From the NCBI GenBank assembly GCA_963532835.1, contig CAUSLL010000002.1:95-64094 (forward strand): a stretch of 64,000 nt of DNA, given 5' to 3'. Under the pieces are notes generated by a model. It ran no database searches. It had not been told where the DNA came from and was given only the letters and a program-made list of their open reading frames with translations. The DNA comes from an uncultured Candidatus Saccharibacteria bacterium (GTDB lineage Bacteria; Patescibacteriota; Saccharimonadia; Saccharimonadales; Saccharimonadaceae). Positions 24,269 through 42,256 of this stretch are shown here, piece by piece. Position 1 is the stretch's first letter, and the number at the start of each line of letters is the position of its first letter. The position numbers were made by a program, and so were the translations under genes.

Positions 24269-24649
24269 TTAGTTACCAGTAACCTTATTGACCACGAAGT
24301 TAACGATAGCGTAGGCAAAGATTGCAATCAACAAACCAATCAAGGAGTACATGATAGTGTTCTTAGCAGATGTCACCTTAGCGCTGTCACCATTGGATGT
24401 GGTGTACTTGAAACCACCAAGGATCAACATAAACACAGAGACAATCGCAATGGCCATCAATGCAAAGTTAATTGACTTTGAGATGATGTCGTCAACGTTA
24501 GCAGTAGCACCGGTGTTGGCGTTTTGAACCTTATTCAAACCTTCTCGAACCTGGGCAAATGCGTTATCACCAGAAGCCAAAAATACTACACCCATGACCA
24601 ACATAGGAAGGGCAAACGCGCCAGCTATTTTAATAATGGTTTTTTTCAT
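24269..24649 (-). CDS. VirB2/TrbC-like T4SS pilin paralog P2
   Basis: 126 aa with a signal peptide ...GDNAFA. Loop motif GGFKYTTSNGDSAKVTSAKNTIMYSLIGLLIAIFAYAIV. Own extended -10 (TGGTATAAT, 24695-24703 minus). Confidence 0.7.
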   Translation of the reverse strand: MKKTIIKIAGAFALPMLVMGVVFLASGDNAFAQVREGLNKVQNANTGATANVDDIISKSINFALMAIAIVSVFMLILGGFKYTTSNGDSAKVTSAKNTIMYSLIGLLIAIFAYAIVNFVVNKVTGN

Positions 24650-24735
24650 GAATTTCGTTTCCTTTCCTTGGGAAATTGATTGTTATTTTACTTCATTATA
24701 CCATATTTTACTATTTGTCTATACCATGTTGACCT

Positions 24736-25107
24736 CTATTGGACGATGCTGCGAAATACATAATCAACAATACCGTAAGCAAGGGCAGAGATGATCACGC
24801 CGATGATGGCATACAGAATGGTGTTTTTAGCAGAGCTCAGTTTGGCGCTGTCACCGTTGGATGTGCTGTATTTCAACCCACCAATAATAACCATCACGAC
24901 GGATACGATACCAGAGATAATCAGCAGATATCTGATGACTGTTTTGATGACAGGATCGACCGACTCGCTGCTATTGGCGCAAACAATGTTGTTTGGATCA
25001 GTACTACAAGCATCATAAATTCCAACCGCCAAAGCAGCTTGTGACAGTAAAAATCCACCGACCATGACAAAGGCCAGAGCAGTGGTAATAGTTACGATTT
25101 TTTTCAT
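24736..25107 (-). CDS. VirB2/TrbC-like T4SS pilin paralog P3
   Basis: 123 aa with a signal peptide ...SQAALA. Motif GGLKYSTSNGDSAKLSSAKNTILYAIIGVIISALAYGIV. Its start overlaps the P4 stop (TAATG). Confidence 0.7.
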   Translation of the reverse strand: MKKIVTITTALAFVMVGGFLLSQAALAVGIYDACSTDPNNIVCANSSESVDPVIKTVIRYLLIISGIVSVVMVIIGGLKYSTSNGDSAKLSSAKNTILYAIIGVIISALAYGIVDYVFRSIVQ

Positions 25108-25403
25108 TAGTTAAACCTCCCTGCGACATAGTTTGTAATAACAAAAGCACACCATACCACCAGCAGACCAACCACCGAATAGATGATACCGTTTTTAGCC
25201 TTGGAGACTTTGCCTGGATCACCAGCGGATACACTGTACATAATGCCATAGATGATGATGGAAATGATGGCCACCACTGCTGAAACTGCAAACACAAGGT
25301 TGGCTATATCACGCAGCGCTACACTATCATTTTTACGATCAGGAATCCCTACGTCACTCGGGGAACCTAATTGGCTAACAATTTGAACGATAAACTTTTC
25401 CAT
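25107..25403 (-). CDS. divergent pilin-like paralog P4 (no N-terminal signal peptide)
   Basis: 98 aa. The hydrophilic N-terminus is followed by the same two-TM hairpin: IIIYGIMYSVSAGDPGKVSKAKNGIIYSVVGLLVV. Confidence 0.6.
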   Translation of the reverse strand: MEKFIVQIVSQLGSPSDVGIPDRKNDSVALRDIANLVFAVSAVVAIISIIIYGIMYSVSAGDPGKVSKAKNGIIYSVVGLLVVWCAFVITNYVAGRFN

Positions 25404-25405
25404 AC

Positions 25406-25831
25406 TTATAACAATGCTCCTGATACCCAGTTTACTATACCCACTGAAGCAACGGCTATAACCAGTCCGATGATGGCATTAAAGACTGTTTTTCGTCCAC
25501 GAGCCGCCCGATCTGGCGATCCTGAGCTGGTGATGAACAGAAAACCACCGTATATGATGTATCCTGCTGCAATATAACCCGTGATTTGGAACAAGTCTTC
25601 AATGAGATTCAGGGCAATTCGCCAGATGTATGGGCCAAAACCGCCAACAGCGCTCGGGCTCTGTAGTTCACATGAATCACCTGACATCAAGTTATAGTAC
25701 CACGGTTTTAGTGTCATAATACGACCACGTTCATCACAAGCACCAGCTAAGGCAGGTTGTGTGCTGACAAATGCCATACCAAAGCTACCCATAAACACCA
25801 AAGTAACTGCTATAATTGCTCTTTTGATCAT
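25406..25831 (-). CDS. divergent pilin-like paralog P5
   Basis: 141 aa with a signal peptide ...TQPALA. Hairpin YIIYGGFLFITSSGSPDRAARGRKTVFNAIIGLVIAV. Its start overlaps the P6 stop (ATGA). Confidence 0.6.
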   Translation of the reverse strand: MIKRAIIAVTLVFMGSFGMAFVSTQPALAGACDERGRIMTLKPWYYNLMSGDSCELQSPSAVGGFGPYIWRIALNLIEDLFQITGYIAAGYIIYGGFLFITSSGSPDRAARGRKTVFNAIIGLVIAVASVGIVNWVSGALL

Positions 25832-26217
25832 GAGAATACTCCTCCTGGGATTAAGAATTGGGTGAGTGTAACGAAAAATGCATAGAGTAGCAAGCCTATC
25901 ACGACATTAATCCAAATCTCGCGAGCTTTTTTGATGTTTTCTGGCTTATCTCCAGATGATGAAAACAATATTCCACCATAGACTACCGCACCAACAGCTG
26001 TGACACCTACACCCATGGTCAAAATTTTTACCGCCTGTTTAACGATGTCAAATATAGCCTCTTTACCGCTCTTACCGCCACATTCTATGGTTGAAGTATC
26101 GACGCCAGCACATTTCTTCGCACTCTCCTCCTCAGCAAATACTGGAGTCGACACAGCAAAACCGACCAGTAAGACTACGGCAATGATGGTTTTTGTAAAG
26201 AAATTTCTGTTTACCAT
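25828..26217 (-). CDS. divergent pilin-like paralog P6
   Basis: 129 aa from MVNRNFFTKTIIAVVLLVGFAVSTPVFA. Hairpin VVYGGILFSSSGDKPENIKKAREIWINVVIGLLLYAFF. The track's TTG start at 26274 lies in the promoter, so it was trimmed. Confidence 0.6.
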   Translation of the reverse strand: MVNRNFFTKTIIAVVLLVGFAVSTPVFAEEESAKKCAGVDTSTIECGGKSGKEAIFDIVKQAVKILTMGVGVTAVGAVVYGGILFSSSGDKPENIKKAREIWINVVIGLLLYAFFVTLTQFLIPGGVFS

Positions 26218-26252
26218 GATTGTTCTACCAATATTAGGTTGATATGTGACTA

Positions 26253-26281
26253 ATTGTAAGATATTGTCGCTCAAAATGCAA
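26253..26281 (-). promoter_or_regulatory. promoter TTGCAT-17-TACAAT for the P6-P5-P4-P3 pilin operon
   Basis: Minus strand: TTGCAT (26281-26276), 17-nt spacer, TACAAT (26258-26253). Confidence 0.4.
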
Positions 26282-26346: not shown

Positions 26347-26424
26347 GCGCTCGTAGTGAAGTTGGTCCATCACGCCTCCCTGTCACGGAGGAGATCGCCG
26401 GTTCGAATCCGGTCGGGCGCGCCA
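26347..26424 (+). tRNA. tRNA-Asp (anticodon GTC), CCA encoded
   Basis: GCGCTCG...CCTCC-CTGTCAC-GGAGG...GGTTCGAATCCGGTCGGGCGCGCCA, folded by hand. Confidence 0.9.
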
Positions 26425-26427
26425 CAG

Positions 26428-26456
26428 ACACCCAGTTGACAGGGTGTTTTTATTTT
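26428..26456 (+). terminator. intrinsic terminator after tRNA-Asp
   Basis: ACACCC-8 nt-GGGTGT followed by TTTTTATTTT. Confidence 0.5.
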
Positions 26457-26572: not shown

Positions 26573-27601
26573 ATGAACGAGCGTAACCCAAGCGATTCAA
26601 AAAATACATTAAACCGCCGAAGGTTCATGGAGCTTTTTACGGTCGGCGCTGGAACAATGGCTGTAGCAGCCTGTGGTAACAAGGAAAATCCTACACCGAA
26701 ACCAACATCAGGACAACTAGGTGAAAGAGTAGAGGACAGTCCTTCGCCGGAAGTATCTCCAACTCCTGAGGTGAGTTTTCAGAGTTTAGAATCTAGTGAA
26801 TTCAACTCAGAAGTTGAATTGTTCCAAAAATATTTTGAAAGCAATATACCAGACAAGGACAAGTTTAAAGCATCCTTATGTATACCAGAACGCATCTTTT
26901 CAGACCCTACAGAAATGTCAAAAGCCTTTAGTGCTGTTTTTGAGACGGTAACTAATGTGTTTACGTATGGAGAAGACGAGAAAGATAAAGGAATTGTTCC
27001 CGTATCTGAAGTTGAGAAAGTATGGAAGGCTAATGAGTTTGGCCGGGCTACCACAAATAAGCCTCGTCTCATAATGGCTGAAGAGTTGGTTGATTTCTTT
27101 TTGGAAGAGTATTGTGTTGACACGATACTCAAAAAACCAGGTGTATATCCAGACGGGAATCCAGAACCACTAAATTCTACCGATCTTCGTAGATGGTTAA
27201 CAGATGTCGTAAATGCACAACTTTCTCTCCAAAGAGAGTCTGAAGGAAAAGGGAGTGCATATTCTGTTGTTTCGCCAGCAAATCCAGATAGGGTTTTGAA
27301 AAATATTAAGGTCGAGGGGTTTACAGCTGAAAAGCAAAGTTACGCAGGCTCCAGCCTTTTTATGAAAAATGTCACCTTCCGCCCAGACACCAACTATAAT
27401 GAGTTAAGTTCATTCCTTGAAGAGGACAATGGTGTCAGCAAGGGCTATTTGGACCAGATTTTGGGTGAAGCTGTCAATGGTGTCAAATTTGAAAAAGTTT
27501 CCTTTACTAAATCTGAGACCAACCCTGGAACAGTGGTGCTATCTGACCTTACCTTTTACGCACCACGATCAGACACCTATACAAAACTACACCAAGACTA
27601 A
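26573..27601 (+). CDS. Tat-signal lipoprotein, function unknown (first gene of the T4SS-like block)
   Basis: 342 aa. Twin-arginine motif NRRRFMEL followed by lipobox AVAAC|GNK. No recognisable catalytic motif. Confidence 0.6.
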   Translation: MNERNPSDSKNTLNRRRFMELFTVGAGTMAVAACGNKENPTPKPTSGQLGERVEDSPSPEVSPTPEVSFQSLESSEFNSEVELFQKYFESNIPDKDKFKASLCIPERIFSDPTEMSKAFSAVFETVTNVFTYGEDEKDKGIVPVSEVEKVWKANEFGRATTNKPRLIMAEELVDFFLEEYCVDTILKKPGVYPDGNPEPLNSTDLRRWLTDVVNAQLSLQRESEGKGSAYSVVSPANPDRVLKNIKVEGFTAEKQSYAGSSLFMKNVTFRPDTNYNELSSFLEEDNGVSKGYLDQILGEAVNGVKFEKVSFTKSETNPGTVVLSDLTFYAPRSDTYTKLHQD

Positions 27602-27622
27602 TAAGCATTTGCGCTTTTGAGA

Positions 27623-27657
27623 CATATACACTACAATTTGTAGTGTATATGTTTTTT
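27623..27657 (+). terminator. strong hairpin plus T6 located 19 nt upstream of the VirB6-like gene start
   Basis: CATATACACTAC-AATTT-GTAGTGTATATG forms a perfect 12-bp stem, followed by TTTTTT. Confidence 0.6.
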
Positions 27658-27675
27658 CTGAAAGGGCATCAAAAC

Positions 27676-30600
27676 ATGGGTAAAAAGCGAGGGTTGATAG
27701 TACTCTCCGCGCTAGTAGTGGCACTTATATCAGCGGTGTTACTTGCTCCGCAGGCAGAGGCTGCGAAAAATTTGAAATTACGGCAAAAAGTTGAATCGGC
27801 GTTAATCTATGCCAACCTAACACATCGAGGTGAAGACACAGGAACAGGTGGTCGTGATGGCGCTACAGGAGCTGATTGGTCATGCATTAATGATCTTTCA
27901 GGGGCAAGATATAGAGATACTTCATCCACTGACGCCAACTGGCCCCCTTCAAATGGCGATAATGCAGAAAACCAAAATACCTTTGTAGGAAAGAAGGCAG
28001 CTAACGGCATACAAAACTTTAAAGGTGTTGATCCGATCACCACAACTGCAGCATCAGACCGCAGTTGCGCTGGGCTTATGAAAGCTGGCATTGACATATG
28101 GGAAGGATCTTCTAAATATGCTGATTTCTACCGACACATGGGAGGTAAATTCTTTACTCAGAGTTCTAAAAATCAGGCTGGGTGGTTATTCCGTGGAGTC
28201 AGGTATAGTGGTGATAAGGACGATATAGCAGATAGCTGCACTAGCTATCCTCATGAAAGCTGGGGACGTTTTTCAGCAGCCGTAAACAATCTAGATGGCA
28301 TAACTGGGAAATATATTAAAAATTACAGGGTTGGTCCAGATAGCTGGGCAGCCGACTCAGTACCATATGCATGCGTCCCAAGCAAGGGCGGAAAAACTAT
28401 TAGGGATGCATTAGATAACGGTATTAAAAATGCAACTGGTAGCTTGCCATCGATAACATCTGGTAGTGCGGAGCATTGGTATATGCACTCAACAATATTT
28501 ACCGGTGGCTGTGATGCAAAAAGAGAAGGGTCTCTGAAAGAAGTTCCCGGGGCTAACCCGGACAGTTCTGGTTATTATTACTACAAGATTCCTTTCACTA
28601 GCAAAGACGGTAAAAATGGCGATATTATATATAAAACTTCCGGAGGAAACAAAACCTTCTGGGTGATTCAACCTGGTGATAGTACTGGTAAAATGACAAA
28701 GGTAGCATGTAAAGATATAGGGTCTTGGCTACAGACCAACAAAGCTGCTTTTGACAAATTTGCAAAATATGCGTCTGAGCATAAAGACGAGCATAAAGAT
28801 CTTGCCATAGGAGACTCTCCAGAAAAAAGTGCCGACTCCTCAGCACAGTCTACAGAAGATGCCGGGGAGCAAAAAGAGGAAAAAACATGTACTAGTGAGT
28901 TAACGGGTATCGGGTGGTTTATCTGCCCAGTCATTGACAAACTGGCTGACTTTGCCGACTCAGTCTGGGGAATGTTAGAAGAATATTTAGTTACAAGCCC
29001 CTTGCAGGCTTCAAATGATGGTCCATACAAATCATGGAAAGTCATGCGAGACCTTGCTAATGTCCTGTTGGCGCTGGTATTTATACTAATCATCATCTCA
29101 CAGGTGTCAAATGTCGGTATATCCAATTACGGCATCAAAAAAATGTTGCCTCGTTTCATCATTGCTGCGGTTGCGGTAAACATATCCTACTTTGTCATCC
29201 AGGTCATCGTTGATATTGCAAACATTCTCGGCAGTACGCTTTTGGCAATTATCACTGAACCAATTAGTACTGTAGATGTTAAAAATGTCGGCTGGGGCAA
29301 CCTCTTAACCCTGATTTTAGGAGCGACGACGACCACAGCTGCGACGCTAGCCGGCGGGGTTGTTGCTGCATCTGTTTTTGGAATTGGAACTATGTTTATG
29401 TTCGTGCTCATGGCGATCGTTCCGGGTGTTATCGGAGTGGTCGGGGGGCTTATCGCATTAGTATTTCGATCAGCACTGATACCAGTCCTCGCCATCTTGG
29501 CTCCGCTGGCTTTTGCGGCCTGGATTTTACCAAATACCCAAGGCGTCTTTGACAAATGGAAAAAAGTCTTCACTGGTATGGTCTTCCTATACCCTCTAGC
29601 AGCAATATACTATGGCGGGCTTAAGCTATTGTCTTTCACTATCCTGGATAATCCTGACAGTGACACAATGCAACGGCTGATGGCGCTATTTCTGATGTTT
29701 GCTGGTACTTTCGTCATCCTCGGTATGGCACTGAAGTCCAATGCTATCATCGGCAGCCTGATGGGGCGAGCCAGTGGACTGTTAAACAAAGCGTCGGCAC
29801 CGGCACTTAATGCAGGAAATAAATTCGCCAAACGTAGAGCAAGCATGAAGCGCAGTGAATTTATGGCTAGAGATTTTAGTAAGAATCCAGTAAGGGGACG
29901 CTTGCAAGGAGGTCTAAGAAAATTACGTCAACGCTCACTTGACCGAGAAACTCGAGCATCGCTGGCAGAACAGAGCGAGCAACAGCGTTACCGAGCAGGG
30001 TTGGCTGAGGCTTCTGGAGGTGAACTGGACAAGCGCCTTGGGTTTGCAGCAGCTACTACTGGTGGTCAGGAATACATCCATAAATTATCCCAAGAGGCTG
30101 CAGCTAAAAAATTGCGGTTCGAATACAACAGTAATGCAGTTGAGGCTCTACGGTCAGATGACAAATACGTTCAAGCAGCAGCAGCAGAAAAACTGTCTCA
30201 ACAAGGCGCTTGGGGAACAGGACAGTTGCGTAAATATCTGGAAGAAGGTGGTAAAATTACCAGTATCGAGATGGGGGATGCCCTTACTAGCGTGAAGAAG
30301 TACGATGCCGGAGTGGCTGCTGCCGGAGTGGCTGGTTTTGATGCAATAGGCAAAGGACAGCAGGCTTATGGCGTCAGTCGAGAAGAGTTAGCCCAAATGA
30401 CAAGTAAAGCATTTGAAAACCTTTCTGTAGATAATTTATCTACGCAGAGTGCAGAGGCACTTGTTAATGCTTACGACAAGGGAGGCTTGGCAAACAGTAG
30501 GGCTGCTGAAGTGTCCGATAGTTCACGATACATGGGTCAAGCCAATGGTAAGACCGCACCAGTATTTGAAGCCCTGGGTCAAAAAGGAGAAAAAGGTCAG

Positions 30601-30993
30601 ACCAATCTTAAGGCAGCAATTGACACAATAAAGTCCAATATGGCTAGTTCGCAGCCAGCAACACCATCTGTACCACCATTGCAGCAAAATCAAGCTCCGC
30701 AGGGTGTGGCGCAGCCAACACCTTCTCAGGCACCAAGCATGACTCCTGATCGTTACTACCCCATCAAAGAGCAGGCGCGGGGACCAGAAGCTCCAAAACC
30801 AGATTCACTGTCTTCAGGTGGTCAAACACAAGCTCCGGCTCCACAGGTTAACGTTACCGTACAAGTGGATAGATCTTCTAATCCGACGGATGCTACCAGT
30901 ATCCCACCGAGCTATATTGACCAGGGTGGCACCAGTGGCACTGGACGGTCACAGCACCGACGCAACCGACCGCCTACTGCGTTTGGCCGATAG
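27676..30993 (+). CDS. giant VirB6/TrbL-like polytopic membrane protein A (Cys-rich ectodomain + TM core + long C-terminal domain)
   Basis: 1105 aa from MGKKRGLIVLSALVV. Signal peptide ...APQAEA, a ~400-aa Cys-containing ectodomain, at least 6 TM helices (aa ~470-720), a ~300-aa charged domain and a P/Q-rich tail. Assignment rests on topology and context, not on a search. Confidence 0.6.
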   Translation: MGKKRGLIVLSALVVALISAVLLAPQAEAAKNLKLRQKVESALIYANLTHRGEDTGTGGRDGATGADWSCINDLSGARYRDTSSTDANWPPSNGDNAENQNTFVGKKAANGIQNFKGVDPITTTAASDRSCAGLMKAGIDIWEGSSKYADFYRHMGGKFFTQSSKNQAGWLFRGVRYSGDKDDIADSCTSYPHESWGRFSAAVNNLDGITGKYIKNYRVGPDSWAADSVPYACVPSKGGKTIRDALDNGIKNATGSLPSITSGSAEHWYMHSTIFTGGCDAKREGSLKEVPGANPDSSGYYYYKIPFTSKDGKNGDIIYKTSGGNKTFWVIQPGDSTGKMTKVACKDIGSWLQTNKAAFDKFAKYASEHKDEHKDLAIGDSPEKSADSSAQSTEDAGEQKEEKTCTSELTGIGWFICPVIDKLADFADSVWGMLEEYLVTSPLQASNDGPYKSWKVMRDLANVLLALVFILIIISQVSNVGISNYGIKKMLPRFIIAAVAVNISYFVIQVIVDIANILGSTLLAIITEPISTVDVKNVGWGNLLTLILGATTTTAATLAGGVVAASVFGIGTMFMFVLMAIVPGVIGVVGGLIALVFRSALIPVLAILAPLAFAAWILPNTQGVFDKWKKVFTGMVFLYPLAAIYYGGLKLLSFTILDNPDSDTMQRLMALFLMFAGTFVILGMALKSNAIIGSLMGRASGLLNKASAPALNAGNKFAKRRASMKRSEFMARDFSKNPVRGRLQGGLRKLRQRSLDRETRASLAEQSEQQRYRAGLAEASGGELDKRLGFAAATTGGQEYIHKLSQEAAAKKLRFEYNSNAVEALRSDDKYVQAAAAEKLSQQGAWGTGQLRKYLEEGGKITSIEMGDALTSVKKYDAGVAAAGVAGFDAIGKGQQAYGVSREELAQMTSKAFENLSVDNLSTQSAEALVNAYDKGGLANSRAAEVSDSSRYMGQANGKTAPVFEALGQKGEKGQTNLKAAIDTIKSNMASSQPATPSVPPLQQNQAPQGVAQPTPSQAPSMTPDRYYPIKEQARGPEAPKPDSLSSGGQTQAPAPQVNVTVQVDRSSNPTDATSIPPSYIDQGGTSGTGRSQHRRNRPPTAFGR

Positions 30994-31003
30994 ATTCATA
31001 TAG

Positions 31004-31032
31004 TTGACTTTTGCGCGAAAAAATGCTACCAT
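31004..31032 (+). promoter_or_regulatory. internal promoter candidate TTGACT-17-TACCAT (with TGC extended -10)
   Basis: Lies in the 62-nt spacer between the two VirB6-like genes. Confidence 0.3.
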
Positions 31033-31055
31033 TTACAGTAATGGAGTGGTTGAAA

Positions 31056-33554
31056 ATGCGAGTGCGTCCGCAAATACGTCGGTCGCAGTGGTTTGCCATA
31101 CTGACTATTGGTATTTTTGTCGGGTTTTTTAGTGGTATACTCATCAACTCTACTTCGGTTTATGCCGCTGAAGCTCAGTGGAAAAGCGACTCACTAGTCG
31201 TTGATGGCAAAACCCTCAAACCAGTTAACGACACGGCTCGTAAAAAACTGCTTGGTCGCGACAGTAAGGACTGGGTCTATGAGGCGGTTGAAGGCAATCA
31301 ATCAACCGTGGTCTTTTTCGCTGGAAATAGCAATCCACGAACCGCTACTACTGCTAAATACGTCAAATACACCCTGAACGGCAGCACACCAACACCGACA
31401 GGCGAGCCAGAGGACATTGAAGTTAAACAGGACAGCAACCCCAGCGAGGCAGAGTGTGATGTGAGAGGGGGAACCGGTTGGTTTATTTGCCCAATCTCTA
31501 ACGGAATCGCCTCAGGAATTGACGAAGTTTATACATGGATTTCCGACCTGATGACCACACCGGCGATAGACAGCTCCAACAATAGCTCTGGGGTAAAGGT
31601 GGCTTGGGACATCATGCGAAATATTGCCAATGCAGCGTTTATTGTCGCTTTTTTGATCGTTATTTATTCACAACTCACCTCAGTTGGCATCAGTAATTAT
31701 GGCATTAAAAAACTAGTTCCACGAGTGGTTATTGCCGCAATCTTAGTCAACCTGTCTTTCATCATTTGTGCCTTAATGATTGATTTATCAAACATCTTCG
31801 GTGTTGCCTTACAAGATATGTTCAACGAAATCCGTTCTCAAGTGTCAGCAAACGGCGCGTTCAATGGTGCTCCACTACCAACTTGGAGCGACTTGGTAGC
31901 CATGGTCCTGTCTGGTGGTGCAGCGACAGCGGGGGTGTATGGCGCACTAGCGGTAACCGGTGGATCATTAGCTTCAGCTGCTTACTGGCTACTGCCTATC
32001 ATCGCTAGTATTTTACTAACTCTAACGGTCGTCTTTATCATCTTGGCAGCACGACAAGCATTATTAATCATCCTGACCGTCATATCACCACTAGCTTTCG
32101 TGTGCTATCTGTTACCAGGCACCGAGAAATTCTTTGAAAAATGGCGAAACTTAATGTTCACCTTGGTGATATTTTTCCCGGCATTTTCAGTGGTCTTTGG
32201 CGGAGCACAGCTGGCAGGAATGATCATTTTACAAAACGCCAACTCATGGATTATGGTAATTTTAGGGCTGGCAGTGCAAGTTTCAGCCCTAGCTATCGCA
32301 CCTCTGGTGTTCAAGTTGAGTGGCGGTGTACTGGGTCGAGTGGCTGGTATCGTCAATAACAAGAACCGCGGCGTTATTGACCGCACCAAAAACTGGTCTC
32401 GTGACCGTAGCCAATTGGCAGCACACAAGAATTCATTAGGTAAATCAGATGATGAATTGAAGAAAATCAGTGGCCTCCGTAAAATGGGGCGCTGGGCTAA
32501 TTACCGCTCACGTAAGTTCAAAACCCGTTCAGAAGCCTACCAAAAGCGTGCTGATGCAGCATACAAACTTTCCCGCGCCAATCAGATTGCTGACATTGAG
32601 TCACGGGCTGCCGCTGACCAATTGTCACTAGCCGATGTTACAACCGCAAACGCTTATGAGGAGATGAAAGTTGAAGGTACACCGACACCAGCCAACCTGA
32701 GAAAGAGAGCTGCCCGCCGCTATGAAACACTACAGGAAGAAACTCAACGAGAAGCGCGTAGTATTGCAATTCAAGGGCTGCGAAAAAACAGTATTCAGCG
32801 CGTTAATGACTACATCTTAGCAAACGACTTAGCTAACCAAGAGGATTTGCGAGCCCAAGCAGGTTCTGTGGAAAATATGTACTTTGGTAACGACCGTGGT
32901 TCACAGCGTGTGTGGTCAACGGCACGTAGCACCATCACTAAGGCTAATAAGGAATCGATTGAGAACGCTATGACTATTCTCAATGCCATGAACGTCAGCA
33001 ATGATGATATGGTGGAATTGGCTAATGGTGTTAGTCGACGCGGCTTGACGGTCACTGATGATATCCGCTACGCAGCGATTCACCACGTGTTAGGTGGTAA
33101 AGATGCCGTGGCCATCCAAAGCTTACTACAAAAAACCGACTTCGGTGCGCTTAATGACGACTTCGCGCAAGAATATGGTGACGCATTGCTATCCAACTCT
33201 GCTAAGCCAGCTTGGTTGGGTGGTGCAGCTGCCGCGGCCATTAAGGCAAATAAGGTTGACATGAACGGTCCAGACTACATGAGGAAGCTTATGCTTGATA
33301 ACCTTAATATCGGTGGTTTGTCGACCGAAGCAATTGTTGGTTCAGACCTGGCTTACTTGAAGCCGCTCAAGGAAGCCCTGAGCGACCAAAGCTTTGTCTC
33401 ACAAATCAATGAAACTGGACTGGACACACTGCGCAAGAACCTTGTTTTGGCACAAACTGATCCTCGATTTAGTAGTCGAATTGGTAAGACCGGTGGTACA
33501 ATTCGAGAAATCTCTCTTTCTCTGGGGATTAAGCCCGAAGATTTAACTAGTTAA
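31056..33554 (+). CDS. giant VirB6/TrbL-like polytopic membrane protein B (paralog of A)
   Basis: 832 aa from ATG 31056, with GGAGTGG SD 7 nt upstream. Shares GTGWFICP and W-x-[VI]MR-x-[LI]AN...SQ[VL][ST][NS]VGISNYGIKK[ML][LV]PR with protein A. Has a TM core and a ~400-aa C-terminal domain. Confidence 0.6.
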   Translation: MRVRPQIRRSQWFAILTIGIFVGFFSGILINSTSVYAAEAQWKSDSLVVDGKTLKPVNDTARKKLLGRDSKDWVYEAVEGNQSTVVFFAGNSNPRTATTAKYVKYTLNGSTPTPTGEPEDIEVKQDSNPSEAECDVRGGTGWFICPISNGIASGIDEVYTWISDLMTTPAIDSSNNSSGVKVAWDIMRNIANAAFIVAFLIVIYSQLTSVGISNYGIKKLVPRVVIAAILVNLSFIICALMIDLSNIFGVALQDMFNEIRSQVSANGAFNGAPLPTWSDLVAMVLSGGAATAGVYGALAVTGGSLASAAYWLLPIIASILLTLTVVFIILAARQALLIILTVISPLAFVCYLLPGTEKFFEKWRNLMFTLVIFFPAFSVVFGGAQLAGMIILQNANSWIMVILGLAVQVSALAIAPLVFKLSGGVLGRVAGIVNNKNRGVIDRTKNWSRDRSQLAAHKNSLGKSDDELKKISGLRKMGRWANYRSRKFKTRSEAYQKRADAAYKLSRANQIADIESRAAADQLSLADVTTANAYEEMKVEGTPTPANLRKRAARRYETLQEETQREARSIAIQGLRKNSIQRVNDYILANDLANQEDLRAQAGSVENMYFGNDRGSQRVWSTARSTITKANKESIENAMTILNAMNVSNDDMVELANGVSRRGLTVTDDIRYAAIHHVLGGKDAVAIQSLLQKTDFGALNDDFAQEYGDALLSNSAKPAWLGGAAAAAIKANKVDMNGPDYMRKLMLDNLNIGGLSTEAIVGSDLAYLKPLKEALSDQSFVSQINETGLDTLRKNLVLAQTDPRFSSRIGKTGGTIREISLSLGIKPEDLTS

Positions 33555-33562: not shown

Positions 33563-33571
33563 TGCTATACT
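33563..33571 (+). promoter_or_regulatory. extended -10 (TGCTATACT) 8 nt upstream of the PrgI-like ATG
   Basis: TGC at 33563-33565 and TATACT at 33566-33571. ATG at 33580 with no SD. Confidence 0.35.
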
Positions 33572-33579
33572 AGTAGCAT

Positions 33580-34506: not shown

Positions 34507-34513
34507 GTGGGAA

Positions 34514-35428: not shown

Positions 35429-37266
35429 TGGCTAAGAAAAAATTAGACGCCATCGATATCGCCGCTCAACAGCGTGCTCGCGAACAAGCCGAAGTCGAGC
35501 AAGCCTTCTTGACCGGCGTGAGAACTTTGCGCGATTTCATCGCCCCAAGTAGTGTGGAAATTCAAGCGAGCTATTTCCGACTGGGCGCCAAGTATGGCCG
35601 CACTATTTATGTCTATGGTTATCCTCGTGAAATTTACACTGGTTGGCTGAGTTCGGTGATTAATATCGACGAGGTGTTGGATATTAGTATGTTCATCTAC
35701 CCGGTTGATACTCAGGTGGTGCTGAACAATTTGCGTAAAAAAGTGACTCAGCTGGAAGCTAGTATGAACATCAACGCAGAGAAGGGACGTGTGCGTGACC
35801 CGGCCATGGAAGCTGCCTTGCAGGACGCCGAAGAGCTGCGTAATCAGCTGCAAATTGGGTCAGAAAAATTCTTCCGTTACGGATTATATGTGACGATTTA
35901 TGCCGACAGCCTTGATGAGCTGAATTTTATTCAGCATAAAATTGAAACTATCTTTGGTCAGCAGCTTATCTTTAGTAAAGTAGCGTCAAACCAGCAAGAA
36001 CAGGGACTAAACAGCACCATTCCTCAGTTGATGGATCAATTACAGATTCGCCGCAACATGAACACTGGTGCCATCTCCACTAGCTTCCCATTCACATCTG
36101 CCGACCTAACTGATGGCAAAGGTGTGCTGTATGGCATCAATATGCACAACAATGGTTTGGTGATCTTTGACCGATTTTCTCTAGAAAACGCCAACATGGT
36201 GGTGTTTGCAAAGTCTGGTGCTGGTAAGTCATTTACCGTGAAGCTGGAAGCACTGCGTAGTATGATGATTGGTGCTGACATCGTTATCATTGACCCGGAA
36301 AATGAATACCAAAAGCTATGTGACGCCGTTGGCGGTAGTCATATACGCCTGAGTTTAAACAGTGACACACGCATCAATCCGTTTGATTTGCCACGAGTGA
36401 TCGACACCGAAGAAGCCGACGACGCATTACGCGCCAACTTGGTTACACTGCACGGTTTACTGCGTCAAATGTTGGGTGGTTCAGTGGCTGGTTCTATCGG
36501 ACTAACCGCAGCAGAGGAAGCAGATATCGACCAGGCATTGATCGACACCTACGCTCGTGTTGGTATCACATCAGATCCATTGACCCACAATTCAACACCG
36601 CCAACCATTCATGATTTGTATGATACATTGCTGCACATGGGTGGCACTGGTCCACAGTTAGCACAGCGTCTGCGTAAATTTACCTCAGGTACCTTTGCTG
36701 GTATTTTCAGTCAGCAGAGTAATATCGATATCAATAACGCCATGGTGGTCTTTAATATCCGAGACCTAGAAGACGAACTGCGCCCAACGGCTATGTATAT
36801 TGTACTAAATCACATCTGGAACATCACTCGAACTGATCAAAGAAAGCGTATGTTGATCGTTGATGAGGCGTGGCAGTTGATGAAATATGAAGACTCAGCT
36901 AGCTTCTTATTTAGCCTGGCGAAGCGAGCCCGAAAATATCAACTAGGACTTACCACCATCACCCAGGACGTCGAGGACTTTGTCGGTAGTAAAATGGGTC
37001 GCGCCATCGTCGCCAACTCATCCATGCAGCTACTCCTTAAACAATCCTCAAGTGCCGTTGATGTGCTTTCCAGTGTGTTTAAATTAACTGAGGAAGAACA
37101 AAAACGCCTGGCGAATTTCCCAGTTGGGCAGGGTTTGTTCTTTGCTGGACAAAACCACGTACACATCCAAATTCAAGCCAGCGACACCGAGTACGATCTG
37201 ATCAATACCTCACCGACGAAGCAACTTCCATCTGAAACACCAATTGGTGGGTATGGAGCAGTATAA
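35428..37266 (+). CDS. virB4: VirB4-family T4SS ATPase
   Basis: 612 aa. Walker A FAKSGAGKSFT and Walker B MLIVDEAWQL. N-terminal IAPSSVEIQASYFRLGAKYGRTIYVYGYPREIYTGWL is typical of Gram-positive VirB4 (PrgJ/TcpF-like). Confidence 0.85.
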   Translation: MAKKKLDAIDIAAQQRAREQAEVEQAFLTGVRTLRDFIAPSSVEIQASYFRLGAKYGRTIYVYGYPREIYTGWLSSVINIDEVLDISMFIYPVDTQVVLNNLRKKVTQLEASMNINAEKGRVRDPAMEAALQDAEELRNQLQIGSEKFFRYGLYVTIYADSLDELNFIQHKIETIFGQQLIFSKVASNQQEQGLNSTIPQLMDQLQIRRNMNTGAISTSFPFTSADLTDGKGVLYGINMHNNGLVIFDRFSLENANMVVFAKSGAGKSFTVKLEALRSMMIGADIVIIDPENEYQKLCDAVGGSHIRLSLNSDTRINPFDLPRVIDTEEADDALRANLVTLHGLLRQMLGGSVAGSIGLTAAEEADIDQALIDTYARVGITSDPLTHNSTPPTIHDLYDTLLHMGGTGPQLAQRLRKFTSGTFAGIFSQQSNIDINNAMVVFNIRDLEDELRPTAMYIVLNHIWNITRTDQRKRMLIVDEAWQLMKYEDSASFLFSLAKRARKYQLGLTTITQDVEDFVGSKMGRAIVANSSMQLLLKQSSSAVDVLSSVFKLTEEEQKRLANFPVGQGLFFAGQNHVHIQIQASDTEYDLINTSPTKQLPSETPIGGYGAV

Positions 37267-37268
37267 TC

Positions 37269-40200
37269 ATGGCGCGGATTGATTATACGACCGATCCAGA
37301 TGTTGATGAACGGCTCAATCCAGCCTCTGAACAAACGTCTAAATATCTAAATTCTATGGAAAATAATGCCGCCAATGATAATTTTTATGATGGCGACAAA
37401 AAAGACGATGGACTCAACGCCGCGAACAGTGTTAACAATCAAGAGCAGCTATATTCTCGGTCTCCTTTGGGTAAGGCTGGCGGTAAAAAGCGCGGCAACC
37501 TCTTGGCGAATATGACTCGCAAAAAATGGGGTGCCACAGCCGGCATCGGTGGAGGATTATTTGGCTTAATGATGTTATTTTTCACAATTTTGCCATATAA
37601 GCTTGATGCCATGGTCTCCACCATCACCGACCAGCTCAGCTCTGTGCCACAACACGCCATTAACCAACGGCTAGAATATATTACCACACGCTGGGTTGCC
37701 ATGAAAATGATGCAAACCGCATATCCTGGTGACGCAAACATCGTATTTTGTGCTGGCGGTGGTGTGTTGTGTCACTTAGGAGCCACAAAGTACAGTACCT
37801 GGTTTGAGGAACAGCTTGACGCTAAGTTTGAACAAGAAGGAAGAAAGGTTAAAGTTGTGTTTAATGCCAGTGGGCGAAATACCTTGGGCGGTAAGGCAAC
37901 ATCATTTTCTATGCATCTTGAGTCAAAAGATATGGACTCTGTTTTAAAGGGGGTAGAGAAAGAACTATCTCACAAAGATATGCGTCGTCATATAAAAAAG
38001 ATGACACGTAAGGTTCACGGACGTAACTATTTCATGCGCTATCTATCTAAACGTGTATTGTACCGAAAATACGGGGTGAAAAAGTTTAACATCATACCAG
38101 AAAAAGCTGGTCAGAAATATGCTGACTTTAAGGCTAAGATCAAGCTAAATATGAATACCCGCATCACTGCCAAAATGTCGCCTCGCTTTGCGGCATATTT
38201 GGGATGTTTAGACGGTACTGATGCCAAAAAATGCCAGGACACGTTGGATAAACTAAATAATGACCTTGACAGTAAGATTAGTGAGGCAGAGAAAGAGGCT
38301 GAAAAAGCGACAGGCGACAATAAGACAAAAGCTGATGAAAAGGTGAAGAAAGTTAAAGGCCAAAAAGAAGCTCTTAATAATATCGACTCTCTATCCAAAG
38401 CAGCACCGGACACACCACTAGGTAAAATTATCAGTAAACAACTGTTTAAGAAAATAGCAGCTGCCAATGCCATCATTGGAGCCATTGACCTTGTTGCAAA
38501 AATCGTGGGAGCGGTTGACCAAAAAATTATTGAGATTGTTGGGGCTGACCAAAAGAAGCAATTATACACCGCTTTCACTTACGACGAAGAGGCTAGCCCA
38601 GTCTTAACCCGAGACCAAATCCGTGCCGGAACAATCGACAATATTCAACATGTTGAGTTAGCAACCTCACTGTTTGACGGCGCCGAATCAGCACCAATAT
38701 TTCAAGCGACGTTTGGCGGTAACAACACCGCAGTGTCACTACTATATCCAACCGCTTACGCCGAGGATGGTGGTATTCGCACCAAATGTGACGTTGGTGG
38801 TGAACAAAAGGTTGTTGCTTTGGATCCTGGTGAACTTGTCTGTCCAGAGAAAAAAATCGTCAAAGACTACACTACCTTTACGAAATATCCTGTTTGGCGA
38901 GTGCTAGCAGGAATTGCCGAAGCCTGGAATAGCACCTTTGGTGCAATCATCGACTTTGTTGGCGACACAGTCGGCAAGGTATTCAGTTGGTTCTTTAGTT
39001 ATCTACAGGAGTTGCCAGGTTTGAAGCAGCTTGTTGAACTTTCGGAAGGTTTGATTGAAAAAGCCATGGGCTGGGCAGTAAGTCTACTCTTTGGTATACC
39101 AGAGGTAGGAGTTGATGCTCCAGGTAATAATAACTTTGAGGCTCTCCATGGTGGACTCACAACAACCATGCAAAGCAGCACTGAAGCTGGGCAGGCTGGG
39201 GCTGATTCAGGCTCCAAACAGCCAGATGGAATTGGAGGAGCGCGATTAACCAACCAGCAGGTTAGTGTACTGGCAAAACAAATTGAGCAGGAGCGCGACG
39301 AAGAATTCCGTGAACAACCATTGATGGCAAAATTGTTCGACCCAACGCTCAAACGCTCAGTGGCTGGACAATTACTCGCCGTCATGCCAACGTCTGGATT
39401 TTCGACCGCGCGACTACTTGCACGGGCACCAATTGCCCTAGCATATGCTGTCACGCCAACCAACACGCATGCCGCCAAATATGACCAAGCAGCCGTCATG
39501 CGAGCTTTCGGTGTAACTTGGCATGGTTTTACTGACGAAGCAGTCTATAAAGCCGACCCAAGTCAATACACCGACAACGTCTGTTCAGCCAAAGCCAAGG
39601 CGCGTGAAGAAAGCTACGGAATTCACGAAGGTGACTTAGTTCCAACATATAGTGTAGCTGACCCATGCGCACTGGAATTAACAGTGGCTGGTAACCTGGC
39701 GCTAATGGCCGACGACAAGGAAGGTAAATATTATCCAAAGGAAATTGATGACCCATCAGCTAACACCGGGGCGCAACAGCCAAGTAGCGGACCAGTTGGA
39801 GACGCCATTGGCCCACCAGAACTTGAAGAAGCACAAACCTTTGGCGCTGAGCCCGCATCATGGGGTGGACATAGAAATGGTGAGATTCCGCTGTCAGCCA
39901 TGAGTGAGCTAAAAACCGCGCCAGGTCACTATATGCATCCAAAGGCCGCTCAAGCCTTTGACGCGATGAATGAAGCGTACGCCCAGGAACACGGTGGTCA
40001 ACATATGACCATTACTGAATCATACCGAACTCTAGCGACTCAACAGGATTACTTTTCAAGTGGTATAACACAAGCAACTCCAGGAACCTCAAAACATGGT
40101 CATGGACTAGCCTTGGATATTAATGTTGGTGGCTCTAGTTTTAATACACCAATCTACCTATGGCTAGCCGCCAATGCTTCAAAATACGGCTTCGTCAACC

Positions 40201-40283
40201 CACCATGGGCAAGGGATCGCAATAATCCTGGTTGGTATAAAGATGAACCATGGCACTGGGACTACGCAAGGAGAGTACAATGA
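37269..40283 (+). CDS. membrane-anchored T4SS-associated protein with C-terminal M15 (VanY/D-Ala-D-Ala carboxypeptidase-type) peptidoglycan peptidase domain
   Basis: 1004 aa with a single TM (aa ~88-110) and a large extracytoplasmic region with a K/E-rich, probably helical segment. C-terminal LAS-type zinc motifs SKHGHGLALDI and DEPWHWDY. Confidence 0.7.
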   Translation: MARIDYTTDPDVDERLNPASEQTSKYLNSMENNAANDNFYDGDKKDDGLNAANSVNNQEQLYSRSPLGKAGGKKRGNLLANMTRKKWGATAGIGGGLFGLMMLFFTILPYKLDAMVSTITDQLSSVPQHAINQRLEYITTRWVAMKMMQTAYPGDANIVFCAGGGVLCHLGATKYSTWFEEQLDAKFEQEGRKVKVVFNASGRNTLGGKATSFSMHLESKDMDSVLKGVEKELSHKDMRRHIKKMTRKVHGRNYFMRYLSKRVLYRKYGVKKFNIIPEKAGQKYADFKAKIKLNMNTRITAKMSPRFAAYLGCLDGTDAKKCQDTLDKLNNDLDSKISEAEKEAEKATGDNKTKADEKVKKVKGQKEALNNIDSLSKAAPDTPLGKIISKQLFKKIAAANAIIGAIDLVAKIVGAVDQKIIEIVGADQKKQLYTAFTYDEEASPVLTRDQIRAGTIDNIQHVELATSLFDGAESAPIFQATFGGNNTAVSLLYPTAYAEDGGIRTKCDVGGEQKVVALDPGELVCPEKKIVKDYTTFTKYPVWRVLAGIAEAWNSTFGAIIDFVGDTVGKVFSWFFSYLQELPGLKQLVELSEGLIEKAMGWAVSLLFGIPEVGVDAPGNNNFEALHGGLTTTMQSSTEAGQAGADSGSKQPDGIGGARLTNQQVSVLAKQIEQERDEEFREQPLMAKLFDPTLKRSVAGQLLAVMPTSGFSTARLLARAPIALAYAVTPTNTHAAKYDQAAVMRAFGVTWHGFTDEAVYKADPSQYTDNVCSAKAKAREESYGIHEGDLVPTYSVADPCALELTVAGNLALMADDKEGKYYPKEIDDPSANTGAQQPSSGPVGDAIGPPELEEAQTFGAEPASWGGHRNGEIPLSAMSELKTAPGHYMHPKAAQAFDAMNEAYAQEHGGQHMTITESYRTLATQQDYFSSGITQATPGTSKHGHGLALDINVGGSSFNTPIYLWLAANASKYGFVNPPWARDRNNPGWYKDEPWHWDYARRVQ

Positions 40284-41515
40284 AACGAGTAAGTATCGGT
40301 CTACTGTTGGCTTTGGCGGGCTGTATCATATTTTTGACCGCAAATTCTTCAGCAGCACCAGAAAAAGATAAAAAAGAAGAAAAGAAGAATCAGCCAGCTG
40401 GCATCCCTTACCAAGATTATATTAAAAACGACATTAATATTACCAATCCAAATAGCCAAATCTGCTCAACCCAAAACACCGCAACTGGTGAACTTTCTGG
40501 CGAAAATGTAGAAAAGGTTCTTAAATTCTTTACCGGTAAGGGCCTAACTTTAGTACAAGCAGCAGCTGTGGCTGGTAACCTCCAACAGGAGTCTCGCATT
40601 GATCCAAGTGCACTCAACAGCATCGGTGCGTATGGTATTGCTCAGTGGTTAGGTGGACGCCGCACCAACCTAGAGAAGAAGCCAAATTACAGTACCATCG
40701 AGGGGCAGCTAGAATACCTCTGGGAGGAGCTAAACGGAGCAGAGAATGCTGGTCTAAAGGTGCTACTGAAACACACTGACAAATCAGGTAGTGGTGTCAG
40801 CGCTTTGGCGGTTGAGTTTGGTGAAACATTTGAGCGCTATGGCCCAAATGAAGAAGGTAACCGTGCCCAGTATGCTTCTGAAATTTTCAACAGTTATAAG
40901 GGTAAAATCCAAGACGGTGATCCATCAAAAATTACGCCAAGTGCTGGTGGTGATTCGGGCGGTGCACAGGTTAGTTCAGCATCAGCAACTGGTTGTAGTG
41001 GTGATGGGTCAAGCGTCGCCGGACAAAGTATTGTCGACACAGTTAAACAATTAGCATGGAATCCAAACACTGATAAAGGAGCTAATAACCACACGGCTAA
41101 AGCTGAATATATCGATGCAGTCAAAAAAAATAACCCGAGTGTTGTCGGTAGTTCAGACACTGACTGCGGTCGATTTGTAGCGACGGTGATGCGTACTTCT
41201 GGTGCAGATAAAGATTATGAACCGATTGGCACTACAGCACAATATTCTTATGTAAAATCTCATCCAGAAAAATTCAAAATCATTGAGCGTCCATCTGCCT
41301 CAGACTTGCAGCCGGGTGATATCCTCTTACACCCAAGTAACGGTGGCTATGGTCACACGTTGATTTACACTGGCGACGTCGGCGGAGGGTATGTCGCTGC
41401 TAACGCCTCGCTTGATGATACGGTACCGATATTCATCAAGCAAGGGTCAGTTGATTACCAACTCAGCCAGGCAGGCAACATCTTAGTTCGCGTCATTCAA
41501 TCAAACAAAACCTAG
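40280..41515 (+). CDS. secreted bifunctional cell-wall hydrolase: phage-tail-lysozyme-like domain + NlpC/P60- or CHAP-like cysteine peptidase
   Basis: 411 aa from MKRVSIGLLLALAGC; the ATGA start overlaps the upstream stop. Motif AAAVAGNLQQESRIDPSALNSIGAYGIAQWLGGRR (lysozyme-like). C-terminal Cys/His pair DCGRFVATVM ... GYGHTLIYTG. Confidence 0.7.
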   Translation: MKRVSIGLLLALAGCIIFLTANSSAAPEKDKKEEKKNQPAGIPYQDYIKNDINITNPNSQICSTQNTATGELSGENVEKVLKFFTGKGLTLVQAAAVAGNLQQESRIDPSALNSIGAYGIAQWLGGRRTNLEKKPNYSTIEGQLEYLWEELNGAENAGLKVLLKHTDKSGSGVSALAVEFGETFERYGPNEEGNRAQYASEIFNSYKGKIQDGDPSKITPSAGGDSGGAQVSSASATGCSGDGSSVAGQSIVDTVKQLAWNPNTDKGANNHTAKAEYIDAVKKNNPSVVGSSDTDCGRFVATVMRTSGADKDYEPIGTTAQYSYVKSHPEKFKIIERPSASDLQPGDILLHPSNGGYGHTLIYTGDVGGGYVAANASLDDTVPIFIKQGSVDYQLSQAGNILVRVIQSNKT

Positions 41516-41527
41516 AAAGGAAATATC

Positions 41528-42256
41528 ATGCAGCCAGTCATTACTAAACAAAAAATTATTGGCGGTGCAGTGATCATCGGCGCGCTGCTTGTTGCTTTCA
41601 TTTCATACTATGTATTCCAAACCGTCACCCGCGATACCACACTGCTAGCAACCTTTGCGCCAGAAACTGTCAAAATGTCTTATGATTCAGTGAAAAACCA
41701 GACCATCACCTCTGATAAACCCGTAACGGTTAAAAGCGGTAAACATACTTTCAGTTTCAGTGCTGATGGCTATGAAACATATACTATTGTACTTGATCTG
41801 GAGAAGGGAAAAGAACGAAAACTGTTGTTTGCCCTGACGCCGAAGAGTGATAAAGCAAAAAATGAACTGAAGCAGAAAAAATATGCCAAAGTCTTGGATG
41901 GACTAGGCAGTCGACAAGTAAACAGGGTCGGTAAGGAAATTAATGAGGCTAATCCAATATTACAGCATCTACCATTTGAAGACAGAGATTACCGAGTTTT
42001 CTCATGTCAGCCGTATCGCACTGACATTAAGAAATCACATAGAATCGGTATCTGCATCACCATGGTCGGGCGCAACGGTGACGCGCTCCTCAGTCAAATA
42101 TTAGAACGACTTGCTAAGCTTGGCGCGACGCCAGATAACTACGACATGAAGATTAATAACTACATCATACCAACCAAGAAAGAAAAAGATAGTCGAGCCG
42201 CTGTACCGTGTGGCAATGGACAGCCATCGTGGTGCTACAAATTCCGTGATCGTTAA
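41528..42256 (+). CDS. single-pass membrane protein with beta-rich (PEGA-like) ectodomain; last gene of the T4SS-like block
   Basis: 242 aa with an N-terminal TM (IIGGAVIIGALLVAFISYYVF). The segment VTVKSGKHTFSFSADGYETYTIVLDLEKGKERKLLFAL is PEGA-like. Its stop is 1 nt from the dnaN stop. Confidence 0.5.
   Translation: MQPVITKQKIIGGAVIIGALLVAFISYYVFQTVTRDTTLLATFAPETVKMSYDSVKNQTITSDKPVTVKSGKHTFSFSADGYETYTIVLDLEKGKERKLLFALTPKSDKAKNELKQKKYAKVLDGLGSRQVNRVGKEINEANPILQHLPFEDRDYRVFSCQPYRTDIKKSHRIGICITMVGRNGDALLSQILERLAKLGATPDNYDMKINNYIIPTKKEKDSRAAVPCGNGQPSWCYKFRDR

Follow-up and report, generated by a model that had tools for sequence, protein, structure and literature searches.

The closest described relatives of the locus reported here, a chromosomal type IV secretion system (T4SS) encoded at positions 24269 to 42256 of a 64-kb stretch of DNA (64,000 nucleotides; the window) from an uncultured Candidatus Saccharibacteria bacterium (assembly GCA_963532835.1, contig CAUSLL010000002.1), come from other Patescibacteria. 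Wang et al. (2023) described an "apparent T4SS (SEML1_0006-0019)" of Southlakia epibionticum, which was essential by transposon sequencing (Tn-seq), essential pilins included, and which was closest to Gram-positive conjugative systems and without recognizable coupling and relaxase proteins (PMC10633639). In that genome the order of genes is dnaA, dnaN, recF, 0004, 0005 (PEGA), 0006 (lysozyme plus cysteine protease), 0007 (1113 aa, DD-peptidase), 0008 (VirB4, 612 aa), 0009 (293 aa), 0010 (PrgI), 0011 (998 aa), 0012 (Tat signal, NTF2-like, nonessential), 0013 (TrbL/VirB6), and 0014-0019 (six pilins), followed by hsp20, comFC, and tRNA-Ser (PMC10633639, Tables S1 and S2). The survey of the whole clade by Quinonero-Coronel et al. 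(2025) reported an MPF-FATA ancestry, TrsD next to VirB4, PrgI, VirB6, and VirB2 arrays, almost no relaxases, homologues of the type IV coupling protein (T4CP) located mostly far from virB4, and dnaA/dnaN nearby (PMC12102498), while a 2025 FEMS review presented the Patescibacteria T4SS as a newcomer to the T4SS superfamily (PMC12857230). Among T4SSs, that of Saccharibacteria has been called the first with a proven essential role in the survival of its own carrier bacterium, a proof that comes from Tn-seq in S. epibionticum only.

The locus of the window is almost certainly the conserved chromosomal T4SS of Saccharibacteria, orthologous to SEML1_0005-0019 of Ca. Southlakia epibionticum ML1, and we consider it just as firmly established that it belongs to the published Patescibacteria T4SS clade, derived from monoderm conjugation machinery (MPF-FATA, CD1110-type). 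Its gene order and its orientation relative to dnaA-dnaN match those of ML1 almost gene for gene. Common to both are a 612-aa VirB4, a protein of ~300 aa, a PrgI protein of ~300 aa, a DD-peptidase of ~1000 to 1100 aa, a lysozyme/cysteine peptidase, a transmembrane (TM)-PEGA protein, two VirB6-like giants, a Tat-signal protein, and a pilin array, with hsp20, comF, and tRNA-Ser beyond this array. By Tn-seq, every counterpart of the T4SS genes of the window is essential in S. epibionticum except that of the Tat protein (PMC10633639). In contrast to S. epibionticum, where recF and one more gene (SEML1_0004) separate the T4SS block from dnaN, both genes are missing in the window, so that the block abuts dnaN. 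In the window, both VirB6-like genes follow the gene of the Tat protein, which in S. epibionticum lies between them, the pilins form a five-gene array with a sixth gene 3.5 kb away, unlike those of S. epibionticum, and the lysozyme protein harbors one lysozyme domain instead of two. The feature is real, but it is already known: the same locus, the missing parts, and the origin-proximal position are all in print, with genetics, and the novelty that the initial annotation saw in a non-mobile T4SS could not be upheld, since that idea has been published (PMC10633639, PMC12102498, PMC12857230).

The open reading frame (ORF) map showed two divergent blocks around tRNA-Asp, as initially annotated, namely, a minus-strand pilin block (24269-26274) and a plus-strand block (26573-42256). 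The tight packing of the genes, with TAATG and ATGA overlaps, and the end of the block 1 nt from the dnaN stop were verified in the sequence. The proposed parts list of a Gram-positive-type T4SS held almost point for point in domain searches, with a VirB4 of the CD1110 family and a match to PDB entry 4AG5. Searches of the ORFs with hidden Markov models (HMMs) placed pilin, PrgI, VirB4, VanY/M15, and Phage_lysozyme2 above cut-off, whereas TrbL, NlpC/P60, and PEGA remained below threshold for the window proteins and were seen in their relatives.

The motor of the system is a VirB4 ATPase of 612 aa (35428-37266, plus strand), which showed the TraG P-loop, AAA_10, and DUF87 domains, a Walker A motif (AKSGAGKS), and a Walker B motif (MLIVDE), and which is without the canonical N-terminal region. 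It scored 383 bits against the NCBIfam model conju_CD1110 (cut-off of 325), covering profile positions 162 to 751 of 752. Its closest solved relative is the Thermoanaerobacter VirB4 (PDB 4AG5; 2.4e-52), the Gram-negative TrwK reaching just 2e-4, and CedB was matched weakly (3.2e-12). The gene preceding virB4, which overlaps it by 1 nt, encodes a TrsD-like protein of 304 aa (34514-35428, plus strand). This protein had no match in Pfam and weak matches, below the curated cut-offs, in NCBIfam: VirB4_plasma (Mbov_0397) at positions 97 to 250 of 894 (1.1e-4), NF041427 TrsD (7e-4), and VirB4_CagE at positions 19 to 133 of 792 (2.7e-3). The 612-aa VirB4, in turn, covers positions 292 to 893 of the 894 of the Mycoplasma VirB4 model. 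As the two proteins cover complementary parts of the NCBIfam profiles, we read the 304-aa protein as a detached N-terminal domain of VirB4, which would be encoded by two genes, in agreement with the TrsD assignment published for the Patescibacteria T4SS. Database homologues of the 304-aa protein carry a precomputed Pfam family, PF26593, and a PDB profile search with the 304-aa family returned only noise or signal-peptide matches.

Directly upstream, a PrgI/VirB3-like membrane protein of 308 aa with a long cytoplasmic tail (33580-34506, plus strand) matched PrgI PF12666 (6.6e-10; 39.8 bits against a cut-off of 27). It is preceded by the genes of two VirB6/TrbL-like polytopic proteins, A (1116 aa; 27643-30993, plus strand) and B (847 aa; 31011-33554, plus strand), assigned from their TM segments and from their paralogy to each other (8e-50). 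Protein A consists of a large N-terminal ectodomain, a TM bundle, and a long C-terminal tail. The TrbL match of these two proteins had E values of only 3 to 6, while 9 of 25 relatives matched TrbL, the best at 5.8e-5; a PDB profile search with the VirB6-like family gave no VirB6 match, only noise or signal-peptide matches.

All five small minus-strand genes annotated as pilin-like passed the cut-off of the Pfam family T4SS_pilin (PF18895). They encode VirB2-like pilin 1 (126 aa; 24269-24649; PF18895, 7e-11), with a signal peptide and two TM helices by hydropathy and a match to the NCBIfam Mbov_0395 pilin-like family (3.3e-8); pilin 2 (123 aa; 24736-25107; PF18895, 4.6e-10; NF045849, 5.5e-7); pilin 3 (98 aa; 25107-25403; 2.1e-12), which overlaps pilin 2 by TAATG; pilin 4 (141 aa; 25406-25831; 1.6e-9); and pilin 5 (148 aa; 25828-26274; 7e-8), which overlaps pilin 4 by ATGA. 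A sixth VirB2-like pilin (20731-21201, plus strand; PF18895, 5e-7, 30.1 bits against a cut-off of 26.6) was found outside the limits of the initially annotated locus, 3.5 kb from the array and within a cluster of tRNA-Ser and tRNA-Arg genes. It aligned with pilins 1 and 2, with which it has the motif GGF(K/R)Y...S.G...AKNTI in common, and its true start is probably an internal MKKF. The pilins, divergent in sequence, thus number six, all above the PF18895 cut-off and in the same number as in S. epibionticum. Five of the six also matched the Mbov_0395 pilin-like family, from a Mycoplasma integrative conjugative element (ICE), at scores below its curated cut-off.

Two peptidoglycan hydrolases are encoded downstream of virB4, with VanY/M15 and Phage_lysozyme2, the domains expected of a VirB1-like hydrolase, both above their cut-offs. 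The first is a membrane-anchored M15 (VanY-type) peptidase protein of 1004 aa (37269-40283, plus strand) with its VanY domain at the C terminus (PF02557, 2.8e-14, residues 887 to 1000); in related loci with a match, a gene of about 1000 aa occupies the same position. The second is a lysozyme plus papain-like cysteine peptidase lipoprotein (40280-41515, plus strand; 421 aa according to the first ORF; Phage_lysozyme2, 2e-24; lipobox LALAGC). Its start is most likely at 40280, which gives both the ATGA overlap and the lipobox. Annotated initially as a lysozyme plus NlpC/P60 protein, it kept the lysozyme assignment, while NlpC/P60 was weak in the window protein itself (CHAP, 0.039; NlpC/P60, 0.13; both below threshold) and is better described, across the family, as a papain-like peptidase: the lysozyme was present in 24 of 25 family members, accompanied by NlpC_P60, C39, or CHAP or by M23, M15, or an amidase swapped in as the second domain. 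From its domains, this lipoprotein appears to be the functional analogue of VirB1.

The plus-strand block begins with a Tat-signal lipoprotein of 342 aa (26573-27601), recognized by an RRRF twin-arginine motif and an AVAAC lipobox, its match to TIGR01409 being below threshold. An iterative HMM search recovered relatives with both a Tat signal and a lipobox in 36 related loci, where they precede the VirB6-like genes or lie between them, and the family profile aligned with the Tat signals of NosZ and hydrogenase. This lipoprotein is, by its place and signal, the probable positional counterpart of SEML1_0012, for which an NTF2/VirB8-like fold has been predicted (Wang et al. 2023; PMC10633639). 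A PDB profile search with the Tat-lipoprotein family gave noise or signal-peptide matches only. The block ends with a TM-PEGA protein of 242 aa (41528-42256, plus strand), the counterpart of the essential SEML1_0005, with one TM helix and a PEGA/CarboxypepD_reg-like beta-sandwich domain. PEGA reached an E value of 0.042 in the window protein and was found in 16 of 27 relatives, all 27 of which matched CarboxypepD_reg; a word-based homologue search with this protein returned one cluster only.

We determined the conservation of the locus across 42 Saccharibacteria species loci with full 10-kb flanks. None of the 42 lacked virB4, the 304-aa gene, PrgI, or either of the two VirB6-like genes, and the synteny that the initial annotation had suggested examining was evident: downstream and on the opposite strand, 40 of these loci have dnaN and 39 have dnaA. 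VirB4 has more than 8000 relatives in databases, the named ones all from Candidatus Saccharibacteria, and 571 in a scan of one genome per species; the best 80 of these 571 were 82 to 100% identical and came nearly all from Saccharibacteria metagenome-assembled genomes, including Nanosynbacter. The median identity to the window proteins across Saccharibacteria species was 85% for VirB4, compared to 69% for DnaA, 63% for DnaN, and 60% for the 304-aa protein, and only 24 to 45% for the pilins, VirB6-like proteins, hydrolases, and PEGA protein. In 54 of 54 genomes (loci L005-L080), VirB4 was more conserved than both DnaA and DnaN. The pattern is that of a strongly constrained motor combined with fast-evolving surface parts. 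The T4SS thus has, in VirB4, one of the most conserved proteins of Saccharibacteria, and its cargo is one of the main questions about the life of these ultrasmall epibionts at the expense of their hosts.

A T4SS becomes an exporter of DNA through its coupling protein and relaxase, while VirB4, VirB3, and VirB6 suffice to build a VirB2 pilus. All substantial ORFs of the 64-kb window were covered, by a Pfam scan or by a check for a Walker A motif; in line with the initial annotation, no coupling ATPase, relaxase, or integrase domain was found in any scanned ORF, and the ORFs left unannotated or unscanned harbored no Walker A motif. Since neither a coupling protein nor a relaxase is encoded there, we infer that the locus is not a conjugative DNA exporter. 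Given the parts that suffice for a pilus and the two that are absent, it is best read as the builder of a pilus or tube directed toward the host, a general scheme that established T4SS biology makes likely. In this scheme, the VirB4 ATPase, made of two pieces (the TrsD-like N-domain protein and the 612-aa core), would dock at the membrane via the PrgI/VirB3-like protein and the two extended VirB6-like polytopic proteins and would pull the Sec-inserted VirB2-like pilins, six paralogues, out of the membrane for polymerization into a pilus or tube. To let this structure pass, the peptidoglycan of the bacterium itself and/or of its actinobacterial host would be cut by the M15 peptidase and the lysozyme/cysteine-peptidase lipoprotein, and the Tat lipoprotein and the TM-PEGA protein may be accessories of the wall zone. 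Taken as a whole, a Saccharibacteria T4SS working in this way is very probably the best explanation of the locus.

Several observations weigh against this interpretation. The VirB6-like, NlpC/P60, and PEGA assignments are below threshold for the window proteins and come from their relatives, and none of the locus proteins searched gave a sequence match to a VirB8-like component. The link between TrsD and the VirB4 N-domain has E values of 1e-4 to 3e-3; BLASTP and hhalign detected no similarity between the 304-aa family and VirB4, with NCBIfam profiles alone connecting them. Structure prediction was of no help either, the AlphaFold2 model of the 304-aa protein (47-sequence alignment) having a predicted local distance difference test score (pLDDT) of 46 and that of the 242-aa protein (2 sequences) a pLDDT of 43, both unusable. 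A coupling protein may also be encoded outside the 64-kb window, VirD4-like genes being reported elsewhere in many Patescibacteria genomes, including a nonessential one in S. epibionticum. Finally, no published experiment shows a pilus, a substrate, or a direction of transport for the Saccharibacteria T4SS.

As to what passes through such a tube, we lean toward import over effector export. By analogy with the Ced and ComB systems, whose polarity it would have, we tentatively propose that the tube serves to import or extract macromolecules of the host, a possibility somewhat short of even. The crenarchaeal Ced system consists of a VirB4-type ATPase, a polytopic membrane protein, and small pilin-like proteins. 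Both Ced and the ComB system of Helicobacter pylori have a VirB4-type ATPase and neither a coupling protein nor a relaxase, like the window locus, and both import; in contrast, neither has a close sequence relationship to it, and ComB is a diderm system with VirB7/9/10. We favor import because the locus has the same set of parts as the Ced DNA importer (pilus, VirB6-like, VirB4-like, no T4CP or relaxase), because Saccharibacteria cannot make nucleotides, because S. epibionticum can do without its competence genes but not without the T4SS, and because the uptake of host RNA, along with tubes resembling T4SS pili, is reported for another patescibacterium in a 2026 preprint. Nucleotide acquisition was proposed in a 2024 perspective. 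The same genetics weaken the link to comF and DNA uptake raised in the initial annotation, since in S. epibionticum a comEC deletion does not affect viability and comFC is nonessential in Tn-seq, unlike the T4SS.

Delivery of toxins, host-manipulating factors, or other proteins into the host or onto its surface, with the pilus as delivery tube or adhesin, is the default guess of Wang et al. 2023 (PMC10633639) and of the 2024 perspective, and Ptl and Brucella VirB are known from the literature as T4CP-independent protein exporters; the host wall could even be a target of the two peptidoglycan hydrolases themselves. However, the window encodes no coupling protein to recruit cytoplasmic substrates, the locus contains no candidate effector or immunity pairs, and the T4CP homologue of S. 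epibionticum is nonessential although its T4SS is essential, all of which leaves effector export rather unlikely in our judgment. In favor of an organelle that only anchors the epibiont on its host, through a VirB2-type pilus and ectodomains with nothing passing, are the six divergent pilins and the rapid evolution of the ectodomains and accessory proteins (median identity, 24 to 44%), which resemble parts for surface recognition subject to diversifying pressure, and conjugative pili do act chiefly in attachment (literature). Such an organelle is nevertheless improbable, given that Saccharibacteria already have type IV pili for essential adhesion and motility (literature) and that a VirB4 identity of 82 to 92% and a conserved channel core exceed the needs of an adhesin. 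That the locus is an ordinary ICE, with relaxase, coupling protein, and integrase outside the window, as the CD1110 VirB4 family, the order PrgI, VirB4, hydrolase typical of Firmicutes conjugative elements, and the tRNA gene inside the locus might suggest, can be practically dismissed in view of the same site beside dnaN/dnaA in ~40 of 42 species, the native composition, the absence of att repeats and of a tRNA-end duplication, the housekeeping genes on both flanks, and a survey counting only 109 relaxases over 103 Patescibacteria genomes, only 15 of them near virB4 (PMC12102498).

The reading of the locus as fixed in the chromosome, made in the initial annotation, was thus backed by the housekeeping flanks, the native G+C, the lack of att-like repeats, the synteny with dnaN/dnaA kept in ~40 of 42 loci, and the distance to plasmid-borne VirB4s, the closest of which, all from monoderms, are at most 38% identical to that of the window. 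The G+C content of the locus is 0.42 to 0.48, the same as that of the flanks, and the search for att sites detected neither flanking direct repeats nor a duplicated tRNA end. To the left lie genes for ribonucleotide reductase, ABC transporters, PGI, GroEL, Mur ligases, TsaD, ValRS, tRNAs, RlmH, ComF, and Hsp20, and to the right dnaN, dnaA, a probable rnpA (not scanned), yidC, a gene for a KH/R3H-domain protein, and a cell-surface polysaccharide cluster. The tRNA-Asp gene (26347-26424, plus strand; ARAGORN and Rfam) is located in the divergent intergenic region and is directly followed by its terminator-like hairpin (26426-26449, plus strand). We rejected it as an integration site, as its 3' end is not repeated elsewhere, and an Rfam search of the window found tRNAs only.

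The genes dnaN and dnaA (42258-44980, minus strand; Pfam) converge with the T4SS block, 1 nt separating the two stop codons (42254-42260), and a terminator scan revealed no terminator-like site between the block and dnaN. Two clusters of DnaA boxes, on either side of dnaA (43469-43512 and 45017-45111), mark the probable oriC. The initial statement that the locus sits directly against oriC is therefore right as far as its place beside dnaN/dnaA is concerned, but the nearest DnaA-box cluster is 1.2 kb away. The bulk GC skew turns at ~26 kb, whereas the cumulative GC skew at four-fold degenerate sites has its minimum at ~42.2 kb. An origin at ~26 kb, in the divergent region between the pilins and the other T4SS genes, was rejected in view of this minimum and of the DnaA boxes around dnaA. 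Because of the position of the four-fold-site minimum, we attribute the bulk turn to a coding-composition effect and place oriC at dnaN/dnaA. It follows that the 16-kb plus-strand block runs toward the origin, head-on to replication, while the pilin array is co-directional with it. Since dnaN/dnaA are convergent with the block in ~40 of the 42 related loci and in S. epibionticum, the head-on orientation probably applies there too, if oriC sits at dnaA.

Two further regions of the window drew our attention. A 1065-aa protein encoded at 11510-14707 (minus strand) combines an N-terminal signal-like segment with a GDSL lipase/acylhydrolase domain and, judging from this domain, could be relevant to lipid scavenging in an organism without fatty-acid synthesis. 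The cell-surface polysaccharide cluster (47199-63895) is long and mostly co-directional and encodes an ABC-2 exporter, several glycosyltransferases, a DUF2142 protein, and rhamnose-pathway proteins, in addition to unannotated proteins (774, 444, and 418 aa), of which the 418-aa one has about 11 TM-like segments.

Outside Patescibacteria, the nearest systems are the CD1110/CTn2-type modules of Firmicutes and actinobacterial plasmids, in which PrgI, VirB4 (30 to 37% identical), and a large NlpC/P60-type hydrolase follow one another in the order of the window. On the Brevibacillus plasmid NZ_CP144923, genes for MobC, a relaxase, and a VirD4-like protein lie upstream of those for PrgI, a single 804-aa VirB4, and an NlpC/P60 protein; on the Embleya plasmid NZ_CP108778, a VirB6-like gene is accompanied by genes for a PrgI-TrsD fusion, a 643-aa VirB4, a T4CP, a replication-relaxation protein, and NlpC/P60. 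The Embleya "PrgI family protein" of 350 aa (L082, 10380-11432) matches the window PrgI with its N terminus and the TrsD-like protein with its C-terminal half, and it is a PrgI-TrsD fusion in a canonical conjugative module. Both of these canonical relatives have a VirD4-like coupling protein as well as a relaxase, located next to VirB4 in Embleya and upstream in the same module in Brevibacillus. In contrast, the window has a split VirB4, no T4CP or relaxase, and a six-gene pilin set.

Closer in layout is a cluster on the 898-kb replicon of Pontibacillus sp. ALD_SL1 (NZ_CP062975; L081, 7456-17009), which comprises two pilins, a VirB6-like protein, a small PrgI-like protein, a TrsD-like protein encoded upstream of virB4 (7e-26 to that of the window), a VirB4 37% identical to that of the window, and a 1050-aa M23 hydrolase, and within 12 kb of which no T4CP or relaxase is annotated. 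Megaplasmid pFDU301A of Priestia megaterium (L083, 9871-14097) harbors, in a stretch that carries no annotation, a degraded copy with a pilin, a TrsD-like protein, and a truncated VirB4 in the same order, virB4 being broken into two ORFs. Both clusters adjoin flagellar genes. The T4SS of Mycoplasma ICEs resembles the locus in that the TrsD-like protein corresponds to the N-terminal positions of the Mbov_0397 VirB4 model and the window VirB4 to the rest, at scores below the curated cut-offs, but these elements are mobile, unlike the locus of the window. Since five of the six window pilins match the Mycoplasma-ICE pilin-like model, pilins of the VirB2-like kind are no strangers to monoderms, and the published idea of their co-option from diderm systems has to be qualified slightly. 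Whether the module of pilin, VirB6-like, PrgI, TrsD-like, truncated VirB4, and ~1000-aa hydrolase, without coupling protein or relaxase, defines a wider, unrecognized class of non-conjugative, pilus-forming monoderm T4SSs seems doubtful to us; if it did, VirB2-like pilins would be ancestral to the monoderm lineage and not borrowed from diderm systems, and the Saccharibacteria version would be a Ced-like import tube feeding the epibiont from its host.

The window offers a clean and complete further example of the Saccharibacteria T4SS, with details that could guide experiments, namely, the split VirB4, the head-on operon, the Tat-lipoprotein family, and the look-alike clusters of Bacillaceae. 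To the published Patescibacteria T4SS clade it adds minor details only. An MPF-FATA-like VirB4, an adjacent TrsD homologue, PrgI/VirB3, VirB6, VirB2 arrays, no relaxase, and dnaA/dnaN nearby are found in the clade and in the window alike, showing no difference of substance between the two.

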